Positions 9,001-12,000 of a DNA stretch of 64,000 nt are shown piece by piece. The position numbers are program-made. Where the stretch lies: assembly GCF_017348835.2 (NCBI RefSeq), contig NZ_CP071375.1, one strand, 5' to 3'. Each line of letters starts with the position of its first letter. Positions within the stretch are counted from its first letter, which is position 1. The stretch is from Escherichia coli (GTDB taxonomy: Bacteria; Pseudomonadota; Gammaproteobacteria; Enterobacterales; Enterobacteriaceae).

Positions 9001-12000
9001 GGTCAGGCTCATGTTACAGCGCCTTCGTGAAGCGGAAGTGGCTCTGCTCGTAGCCTTCACGCAGGTAAAAACGGTGCGCGTCGTGGCGCTTCACGTTGGT
9101 CGAAAGCTCGGTCATTTCGGCCCCGGCCTGGCGGGCTTCTTCTTCTGCCCACGCTAGCAATTTACTGCCGACGTTCAGGCCGCGCGCCTGCGGCATCACC
9201 ACCAGCTCCTGAATTTCGCCGATCCAGTTGACATGATGCAGATGAAACTGCAAATGCAGGCCGATCATACCGACAACTTCGCCATCCAGCAGCGCCAGAT
9301 GGTAGCGCATGTTTGGGTCACGCAGGTTGGCGTTAAAGCCCACGCGAAACGCGTGATGGTCAAACTCCGCCTGTTTTAGCTCACAAATCAGCGCGTAAAC
9401 CGCGTCGGTGTCGTACTGTGTGGCCGGGCGAAGCTCACAAGCAGGCATGGTGTTTCTCCTTCTGATGGATCAGCGTCAGCAGCGTGTCGACCGACTGGCG
9501 CAGGCTGCCGTCATTATTGAGCGTATGGCAATCCTGAGGAGTATAGCGGGCGGCGCGCGCCAGCCGGGCGTTAATTTCACTGGCGTTTTCACGACCACGG
9601 TTTTCCAGGCGCTGGCGCAGGATCTCTGGCGACACCTGTAAGCAGATGGGCAGCAGCGCCGATGCATAGCGTGCCCGCGCCTGTGGCAGATGGGCGCGTG
9701 AGCCGTTGACCAGCACGTCGAATCCGGCGTGCAGCCAGAGGTCTATCTCGACGCCGACGCCATAATACAGGCCGTTGGCGTGCCAGCTTAAGGCCAGTAG
9801 GTTCTGCCCCGCGCGGGTAAAAAACTCCTGCTCGCTCAGGGCGATATGGTTTTCGATTCCGGCGCTGGCGTCGCGCGTGATGTAGCGATGTGCCACCAGT
9901 AGCTGAGTTTGTTCCCGCAGGCGGAGTTCCGCCAGCAGGCTATCTTTCCCGGAGCCGGACGGCCCCATTAACCAAATCAGTTTTCCCATCATCAGAACAC
10001 CCTTTTACCCTGACGCCAGACGTGGTCGATATGAATGTGATTGCCCTTGCGATGCGCCAGCACCAGGTCCGCGCGTTTGCCCTCGCCAATCACCCCGCGA
10101 TCCTGGAGATTAAGCGCCTGCGCTGGATTTTTAGTCACCAGCTTCACCGCCTGCGGCAGCGTAAAGCGGTTGCTCTCGTCATCGGCGACGCGGAACGCCG
10201 CATCCAGCAGGCTGGCGGGGTAGTAGTCGGAAGAGAGGATATCCAGCAGGCCAAGCTGCGCCAGTTCACTGGCCGCCACGTTGCCGGAGTGCGAGCCGCC
10301 GCGCACGATATTTGGTGCACCCATCAGCACGTTCATGCCATGCTTGCGCGAGGCTTCCGCCGCTTCGAACGTAGTGGGAAATTCGGCGATCACACTGCCA
10401 AGCTGGTGGGATTCGGCAACGTGGGCGTGGGTGGCGTCATCGTGGCTGGCGAGCGCAATGTGTCGCGCGCGGCACATTGCGGCGATGGATTCGCGATTTG
10501 GCTGCGACCAGCGTGCAGCAAGCGCCAGCTGTTCCTCTTCATACTGCTGCATCTGCGCATCAGTAAGCGAGTATTTACCCTGATAATACTCGCGATACTT
10601 CTCGCGATTGGCGAACTGGCGCTGGCCCGGCGAGTGGTCCATTAGCGACACCAGCGTCACCGGCTCGCGCAGCACCAGTTTTTCAAACAGCGGCAGCGTG
10701 GTGTGATGCGGCAGTTCGCAGCGCAGATGCAGACGGTGCTCGGCGCGGTTGACGCCGCGTTTCTGCGTCTCTTCGATGGCGTTGATCATCTTCTCCAGAT
10801 TCTCCAGCCGATCGCCGCCGTCGCGCACGTCGCCAATTGCCACGGCGTCCAGTACGGTGGTGATGCCGCTCGCCACCATCAGCGCGTCGTGGCTGCTCAT
10901 CGCCGAGTGGGCAGGCCAGTCAACTTTCGGGCGCGGGGTGAAGAATTTATCCAGATTATCGGTATGCAGCTCAATCAGCCCCGGCAGCAGCCAGCCGCCT
11001 TCGCCGTCCATCGCCTCCGGCAGGCGGCTCTGGCTTTCGGCAAAGGCGCGGATTTCGCCATCCTGCATCTTCAGCGAACCGTGTACGACTTCGTTTTCCA
11101 GCACCAGTTTAACGTTATTGATAATCATGCAGAGGCTCCCATTGGGTGCAGGCGGTCGGCGACATCATTGCGTACGGCTTCGTCATGGAAGATGCCGACG
11201 ATGGCTGCGCCACGGGCTTTGGCTTCGCGGATCAGTTCCACTACGGCGGCGCTGTTTTTAGCGTCCAGCGAGGCGGTAGGTTCGTCGAGCAGCAGAATGG
11301 GATAATCGACGATAAAGCCGCGGGCGATGTTGACGCGCTGCTGTTCGCCGCCGGAGAAGGTCGATGGTGCCAGGTGCCACAGGCGTTCCGGCACGTTCAG
11401 GCGGGTGAGCAGACGCGCGGCTTTAGCGGCGCAGACTTCACGCGGAACGCCGGTATCGAGCAGCGGTTGCATCACCACTTCCAGTGCTGAGATACGCGGG
11501 ATGACGCGCAGAAACTGGCTCACCCAGCCGACGGTGGTTTTGCGGATTTCCACCACTTTGCGCGCTGGCGCAGTGACCAGGTCAACCCATTCGTCGCCGT
11601 GTTTGATCTGGATTTTCCCTTCGTCGGGCAGATAGTTGGCGTACAGCGAGCGCAGCAGGGTTGATTTGCCGCTGCCGGAGTGGCCGTGGAGCACCACGCA
11701 TTCGCCCGCGTTGACGGTGAGCGAGGCACGTTGTAAGACGGGCAGGCGCACGCCGTTTTGCTGGTGCAGGATGAAGGTTTTACTGACGTTTTGTACGTTA
11801 ATCATTTTTCGCCTCGTGGTTCGGGTGTCGGATGCGACGCTGATGCGTCTTATCCGACCTACGGGGAGCGCATTTGTAGGCCGGATAAGGCGTTTACGCC
11901 GCATCCGGCACCGGCTCAATTCTGCAAAACCGATGACACCAGCAGCTGGGTGTACGGATGATGCGGGTCGTCGAGCACGCGGTCGGTTAACCCACTCTCC

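Follow-up and report, generated by a model that had tools for sequence, protein, structure and literature searches.

Repetitive extragenic palindromic (REP) sequences of Escherichia coli are recognized by a GTAG tetranucleotide 5' of an imperfect palindrome, by their extragenic location, and by their high copy number (PMC3333891, PMC8266576). Three unit types, y (35 nt), z1 (29 nt), and z2 (37 nt), are distinguished, and they carry a conserved AA/GC mismatch bulge (Ton-Hoang et al., PMC3333891; Corneloup et al., PMC8266576); in vitro, the REP-associated tyrosine transposase (RAYT, or TnpA-REP) needs both the GTAG and the bulge (PMC8266576). Units combine into bacterial interspersed mosaic elements (BIMEs): BIME-1 consists of z1 and y units around a long L linker with an IHF site, and BIME-2 of tandem y/z2 copies in which REP and inverted REP (iREP) units are joined by a short S linker (PMC3333891). 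Here, we characterize a pair of REP units that lies between phnK and phnL, inside the phn operon carried by a 64,000-nucleotide stretch of E. coli DNA (contig NZ_CP071375.1; hereafter, the window).

The closest described array, REP325, lies between yjdM and yjdN and has 12 units in MG1655; it has a stabilizing effect on the mRNA of the upstream yjdM and an attenuating effect of about 10-fold on yjdN, with partial Rho dependence seen only for the full array (preprint 10.64898/2026.03.23.713779). Across 146 REP-containing tandem gene pairs, the same preprint gives a median log upstream/downstream expression ratio of 0.96 (versus -0.09). An effect on translation is attributed to Liang, Rudd and Deutscher (2015) in the summary given by PMC12306157: REPs lower translation of the upstream gene only when they lie less than 16 nt from its stop codon.

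A y/z2 REP pair between phnK and phnL

The phn operon is encoded on the minus strand of the window. Gene limits were taken from the RefSeq annotation of strain PE164, which is 100% identical to the window across the 501 bases surrounding the REP pair (K-12 is 97% identical). phnK (11916–12674, minus strand) ends in a TGA stop codon at 11916–11918, and phnL (11125–11805, minus strand) begins with an ATG start codon at 11803–11805 (codons placed from sequence and annotation together); both genes encode ABC-type ATPases (Pfam ABC_tran, E values of 6e-35 and 2e-31). The spacer between them (11806–11915) is exactly 110 bp long, and it is filled by a resident REP pair consisting of one y and one z2 unit.

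The y-type unit (35 nt, GTAGGCCGGATAAGGCGTTTACGCCGCATCCGGCA; 11876–11910, plus strand) reads as an iREP (...CCTAC) on the phn mRNA. It consists of GTAG (11876–11879), the stems GCCGGAT/ATCCGGC and GGCG/CGCC, an AA/GC bulge, and a TTTA loop. The second unit, a variant of the z2 type (37 nt, GTAGGTCGGATAAGACGCATCAGCGTCGCATCCGACA; 11826–11862, minus strand), has the REP orientation on the mRNA, with GTAG at 11862–11859, the stems GTCGGAT/ATCCGAC and GACGC/GCGTC, an AA/GC bulge, and an ATCA loop. The two units are inverted with respect to one another, in the order iY–linker–Z2, and their GTAG ends face each other across a 13 nt linker (11863–11875). None of the 13 linker sites varies among 12 diverse E. 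coli strains, and the linker-containing junction occurs 1–6 times per genome. From the phnK stop to the phnL start, the mRNA reads UGA GCCGG U-GCCGGAUGCGGCGUAAACGCCUUAUCCGGC-CUAC AAAUGCGCUCCCC GUAG-GUCGGAUAAGACGCAUCAGCGUCGCAUCCGAC-A CCCGAACCAC GAGG CGAAAA AUG, where AAAUGCGCUCCCC is the linker. The five nucleotides separating the stop codon from the y unit (11911–11915, minus strand; GCCGG on the mRNA) are the most variable part of the gap, with three of five sites varying among the same 12 strains. The other end is occupied by a 20 nt phnL leader (11806–11825, minus strand), in which the Shine-Dalgarno sequence GAGG lies at 11812–11815.

Membership of the REP family rests on several features. 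In both units GTAG stands directly 5' of the palindrome, the lengths (35 and 37 nt) are canonical, and the AA/GC bulge is present; the GTAG and the bulge that TnpA-REP/RAYT needs in vitro are intact in the window's copies. The y unit is identical at 35/35 positions to the y copies of REP325, which lies in the same window, and the z2 unit at 30/37 positions to the REP325 z2 copies. Two compensatory stem pairs (C6-G35 to T-A, T8-A33 to G-C) account for four of the seven z2 differences, and the other three fall in the loop. A 17 nt REP core pattern, GTAGGYCKGATAAGNCG, is matched 23 times in the 64 kb, versus 0.07 matches expected, and both spacer units match it with no mismatches. In megablast, the gap sequence as a whole matches 27 places in the median E. 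coli genome, and no part of the pair extends past the phnK stop or the phnL start. An earlier note on this DNA, made from the sequence, had described a REP pair at 11820–11915 in the 110 bp phnK–phnL gap of the phn operon, and had named a failure of the palindromes to align with the REP consensus as the result that would overturn it. The interval encloses both units (11826–11910), the GTAG, palindrome, bulge, length, and copy number all bear the description out, and the alignments to the REP325 copies leave it standing.

The same note had held the pair responsible for an extended phnL in the open reading frame (ORF) track, and this is borne out by the annotated phnL of 226 aa. Because the frame remains open across the REPs, the mechanical ORF runs through 11125..11919 from a TTG start at 11919 and encodes 264 aa. 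The genuine phnL product has 226 aa and starts at the ATG at 11805, with GAGG six bases upstream. PhnL homologues from 80 species (a scan of one genome for each species with PhnL, giving 80 loci) align starting at residue 1 or 2.

How the pair is best classified depends on the way in which its units are joined. Its composition, y plus z2 in alternating orientation, is that of BIME-2; the S linker and the multiple tandem copies are absent, the locus being a single pair joined on the GTAG side. The 13 nt linker, AAATGCGCTCCCC, resembles the 17 nt inter-unit linker of REP325, AAATTCCCGCACCCTCC (AAAT...CCC), rather than the S linker, ACGGTGCCGACT. On these sequence features, the pair is best called a one-period fragment of a BIME-2-type mosaic, or an atypical BIME, in the phase iY–linker–Z2. 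Two other classes were considered and rejected. A BIME-1/IHF-binding RIP element would include a 29 nt z1 unit, which is missing, and the linker has only 13 nt. At the Rfam gathering threshold no family was matched in the gap; the pair is not filed as naRNA4 (RF02564) because its matches of 42.7, 37.0, and 27.9 bits all fall below the threshold of 59.5 bits. The 42.7-bit partial match falls on the y unit.

The pair is known in kind and almost certainly catalogued individually. The gap of K-12 is identical at 109/110 positions, with one substitution, in the loop, which places the element among the 355 catalogued REP loci. The RefSeq feature table of MG1655 lists no repeat features. In the numbering used in the supplement of preprint 10.64898/2026.03.23.713779, REP321 lies between gltP and yjcO, REP324 between phnD and phnE, and REP325 between yjdM and yjdN; REP322 and REP323, the names that this order would lead one to expect for phnK–phnL, were not found there. 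A literature search on phnK/phnL together with REP returned nothing specific.

Variation within E. coli and among related genera

The position of the pair within its operon bears on whether it does anything at all. Between phnC and phnP there are 13 gene junctions. At eight of them the genes overlap or abut, at three they lie 1–24 nt apart, and just two junctions are longer: phnD–phnE (105 nt) and phnK–phnL (110 nt). REPs make up essentially all of the extra length in both. The main rival to a functional role takes its start here. On that account the phnK–phnL pair is selfish or junk DNA, a neutral passenger sitting in one of two permissive junctions with no measurable effect on phn expression, and the fact that the only two junctions above 24 nt are both REP-filled is in its favor.

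The earlier note had proposed a comparison with other E. coli phn operons, and this was made across 5426 complete genomes. The REP-pair allele is present in 4840 (89%). A second, 176 bp allele is carried by 546 (10%; e.g., strain 2014C-3655). In it, an unrelated repeat stands in for the whole segment that begins with the first base past the phnK stop and ends 21 nt ahead of the phnL ATG, and the 20 nt leader is unchanged. The replacement carries CCCTCTCCC/GGGAGAGGG hairpins, folds to -98 kcal/mol starting 11 nt past the phnK stop, and belongs to a repeat family with a median of 17 places per genome. Flank distances, compared for a hint of which allele is ancestral, nest neither allele inside the other. 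The alternative element is absent from the window, and in Rfam it matched no family, giving only spurious miRNA hits. TRIP1 was considered as its identity, but the copy number of TRIP1 (3–5 loci) does not fit a median of 17 places. The element may resemble the Box C of the older literature. The alternative repeat also occurs in QNRL01000011.1, labelled Pseudocitrobacter faecalis DSM 27453, which has a 298 bp gap with four tandem units of it. The phnK and phnL of this sequence show 98–99% protein identity to those of E. coli at 5–8% DNA divergence, and it may come from an Escherichia-like genome or from one with a transferred phn cluster.

The replacement allele also bears on a role at the DNA level. 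BIME-2 is described as a site at which DNA gyrase or nucleoid proteins bind or cleave, and the y/z2 pair could serve as such a site, relieving supercoiling in a long, strongly induced operon. We consider this very unlikely. The pair does consist of y and z2, the units of BIME-2 (PMC3333891), but it is a single pair that lacks the BIME-2 S linker, and 10% of strains have an unrelated repeat in its place. Even for the much larger REP325, no role in chromosome compaction or REP–REP contacts was found (preprint 10.64898/2026.03.23.713779).

Among the 12 strains, nucleotide diversity (pi) is 0.024 in the gap; the flanking genes reach 0.118 at their third codon positions, a five-fold difference. No variant disrupts a stem. 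This pattern is suggestive of constraint, or purifying selection, but not conclusive. Five of the 12 strains carry two changes in the y unit, GTAG to GTCG (position 11878) and bulge GC to GT (position 11902). By the in vitro rules (PMC8266576), these changes should end recognition by the REP transposase, and they should keep or even strengthen the RNA hairpin.

Across the 80 scanned loci the phnK–phnL gap is usually 7–60 nt. In a closer comparison of 14 other Enterobacteriaceae, REP or REP-like hairpins occupy the junction in eight species, in every case within 15 nt of the phnK stop. Five of these have GTAG REPs of a genus-specific type (Lelliottia, one unit; Enterobacter asburiae, three; Citrobacter werkmanii, two; Pluralibacter, two; Cedecea sulfonylureivorans, one), and in the other three (Kluyvera, RIT691, and Enterobacter cloacae) the palindrome is REP-like but lacks GTAG. 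The paired units of C. werkmanii and Pluralibacter follow the iREP–linker–REP order seen in E. coli. The remaining six have a bare junction of 7–18 nt: Leclercia, Citrobacter sp. FP75, two Enterobacter, one metagenome-assembled genome, and Cedecea neteri. Unit number varies within genera (two or none in Citrobacter; three, one, or none in Enterobacter; one or none in Cedecea), so gain and loss are frequent.

These data can be brought to bear on the neutral passenger. Citrobacter, Enterobacter, and Cedecea each include members with and without units at the junction, an unrelated repeat has come to occupy the same site in 10% of E. coli, and a y unit that has lost its GTAG and canonical bulge in 5/12 strains is what one would expect of a decaying mobile element; to this may be added that REPs have no uniform effect on mRNA half-lives (preprint 10.64898/2026.03.23.713779). 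On the other side stand the five-fold deficit of diversity with its untouched stems, the fact that every occupant, of whichever repeat family, forms a strong hairpin near the phnK stop, and the bias toward the upstream gene that tandem pairs with a REP show across the genome (preprint 10.64898/2026.03.23.713779). Weighing both, we regard an element without effect as possible but somewhat doubtful.

The recurrence of hairpins at one junction also permits a bolder proposal, which we put forward tentatively and think rather improbable: that selection keeps a very stable RNA hairpin, of any origin, at the phnK–phnL junction as operon punctuation, with different repeat families providing it convergently. 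The occupants are the y/z2 REP pair in 89% of E. coli, the CCCTCTCCC/GGGAGAGGG repeat in 10%, and genus-specific REPs in Citrobacter, Enterobacter, Pluralibacter, Lelliottia, Cedecea, and Kluyvera; every one of these starts within about 12 nt of the stop. If the proposal were true, the 14-gene mRNA would be split into a phnC–K and a phnL–P module differing in stability or translation. The 3 bp GCC/GGC base of the folded spacer, described below, would then keep the phnK stop near the phnL start, such that re-initiation survives a 110 nt insertion.

Predicted effect on the phn mRNA

Folded singly, the two hairpins reach -22.3 and -20.5 kcal/mol (z scores of -4.7 and -5.9 versus shuffled controls); folded as one long hairpin, the whole pair reaches -51.9 kcal/mol (z score of -7.3). 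Structure begins 3–6 nt past the phnK stop and extends to a point 10 nt short of the phnL Shine-Dalgarno sequence. The range at the 5' side reflects two possible stems, a canonical one from 11909 (6 nt from the stop) and one extended by extra G-C pairs from 11912 (3 nt from the stop). In the minimum free energy and centroid folds, GCC at 11913–11915, immediately after the phnK stop, pairs with GGC at 11811–11813, which overlaps the phnL Shine-Dalgarno sequence. This base of the long REP hairpin brings the phnK stop near the phnL start; it has only 3 bp and may be due to chance.

Stable hairpins rich in G+C invite the thought of an intrinsic (Rho-independent) terminator that divides the operon into two transcription units. 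There is next to no chance of this, and we reject it. Neither hairpin leads into a U-run (ACACCCGAACCACGAGG comes after the second), no terminator-like site was found in the gap, and no promoter-like site was found on the minus strand before phnL. Growth on phosphonate, moreover, depends on PhnL and the downstream enzymes, and phnL–P have their expression from the pho-box promoter that lies upstream of phnC and serves the whole operon (PMC9947105), so that read-through is required. It is thus established that the REP pair is co-transcribed with the operon and that it cannot be a strong terminator.

The reading that we consider somewhat probable is a modest bias of phn mRNA toward the upstream segment, produced by exonuclease blocking together with pausing or partial termination. 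On this reading, the pair would have arrived as a small piece of mobile or recombining DNA of the kind handled by RAYT, and would be transcribed within the single phnC–P mRNA. There, it would fold into two adjacent hairpins (approximately -22 and -21 kcal/mol) or one long one (-52 kcal/mol). These would hinder 3'-to-5' exonucleases and bring about a degree of pausing or partial termination, leaving the upstream phnC–K segment somewhat more abundant than the downstream phnL–P segment, with most transcription continuing through. Such a bias would be expected by analogy with REP325 and with the REP-containing tandem gene pairs. The idea of differential mRNA stability or polarity, raised in the earlier note, agrees with what has been published on other intercistronic REPs (preprint 10.64898/2026.03.23.713779). 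Any tuning of mRNA stability by the pair is probably slight. The analysis itself shows what the element is (its identity being all but certain), how it is built and placed, how it can fold, and how common and conserved it is; an effect on the RNA, and the size of that effect, are drawn from analogy.

Several observations weigh against an upstream bias, or against its importance. In uninduced cells, the DESeq baseMean is 32 for phnK and 118 for phnL, which is not upstream-biased; these values are not length-normalized, and they say little because the operon is off under those conditions. REP fragments of 2–4 hairpins show no dependence on Rho (as judged with bicyclomycin), so that a two-hairpin element may attenuate little, and REPs have no general effect on mRNA half-life (both from preprint 10.64898/2026.03.23.713779). 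PhnK and PhnL occur 2:2 in the Phn(GHIJKL)2 complex (PMC9947105), and there is therefore no obvious need for unequal dosage. The six related species without a junction hairpin indicate that the element is dispensable for the pathway. Finally, the low diversity of the gap could reflect homogenization with other copies; given that the linker junction recurs 1–6 times per genome, the argument from selection is weakened.

The position of the first hairpin suggests an effect on translation, which would be compatible with the modest mRNA bias that we favor. A ribosome terminating on phnK would have to melt the hairpin and could stall there, with the consequence that the mRNA is cleaved, PhnK receives a tag from transfer-messenger RNA (tmRNA), and the yield of PhnK is lowered. 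At 6 or 3 nt from the stop, the phnK REP lies within the limit of 16 nt, and the junction REPs of seven other species, like the alternative E. coli allele, also begin 4–12 nt past the stop. Proximity is nevertheless weak evidence, because about half of all REPs satisfy the same distance rule. PhnK is also needed at the same stoichiometry as PhnL (PMC9947105), which argues against a device that reduces it. We consider a brake of this type unlikely, though not strongly so.

Neighboring and comparable REP loci

On its own, the phnK–phnL pair matters little, REPs being more abundant in E. coli than any other non-coding repeat. Its modest value comes from the setting: the phn region has three REP loci within 9 kb, with 2, 2, and 18 units. 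Together with the natural allelic replacement and the hairpin-free orthologues, these loci constitute a natural series in the number and type of intercistronic hairpins. Such a series could show how a long, inducible operon responds to these hairpins in mRNA decay, termination-proximal translation, and read-through.

Within the operon, the comparison is with the pair in the 105 nt phnD–phnE gap (17142–17228; z2-variant/y), named REP324 in the supplement of preprint 10.64898/2026.03.23.713779. It shares with the phnK–phnL pair the operon, the size class, a y unit, and a z2 unit with the unusual stem GTCGGAT/ATCCGAC. The two differ in order: REP324 reads Z2–(15 nt)–iY with its GTAG ends facing outward, whereas the phnK–phnL pair reads iY–(13 nt)–Z2 with its GTAG ends facing inward, a circular permutation. 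By this comparison of unit order, the two phn pairs are two different one-period cuts of a BIME-2-like repeat. The adjoining phnE (16347–17126) is annotated in the identical strain PE164 as an intact permease of 259 aa. In K-12, phnE is a cryptic allele carrying an 8 bp insertion.

REP325/naRNA4, the array between yjdM and yjdN (19698–20581), yields nine Rfam naRNA4 matches with a 100 bp period and has 18 palindromic units in the window strain. Like the phnK–phnL pair, from which it lies 8 kb away, it is built of y and z2 units and stands between co-transcribed tandem genes. Its 18 units follow a Y–S–Z2 pattern with a 12 nt S linker and a 17 nt tail linker, while the phnK–phnL pair has two units and the tail-linker junction only. 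Further along the window, a full-length Rfam match to the enterobacterial small RNA STnc630 was recorded at 26248–26413 (181.8 bits), adjoined by a degenerate REP-like match at 26230–26246.

Among the named classes, BIME-2 as defined by Bachellier/Gilson and by Ton-Hoang et al. (PMC3333891) shares y and z2 units in alternating orientation with the phnK–phnL locus, but it is a tandem array with an S linker, where the latter is a single pair without one. Stop-proximal, ribosome-stalling REPs form another class, for which nrdAB is the example in the account of Liang, Rudd and Deutscher (2015) given by PMC12306157. The phnK REP is like them in geometry. The intercistronic REP of malE–malF is the classical mRNA stabilizer, reported by Newbury and colleagues in 1987 (ref. 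15 of PMC12306157) to protect the upstream segment from 3' exonucleases. It too is an intra-operon REP pair downstream of a gene. The two operons differ in what is asked of the upstream gene: in the mal operon its product is needed in large excess, whereas PhnK and PhnL enter their complex at 2:2.

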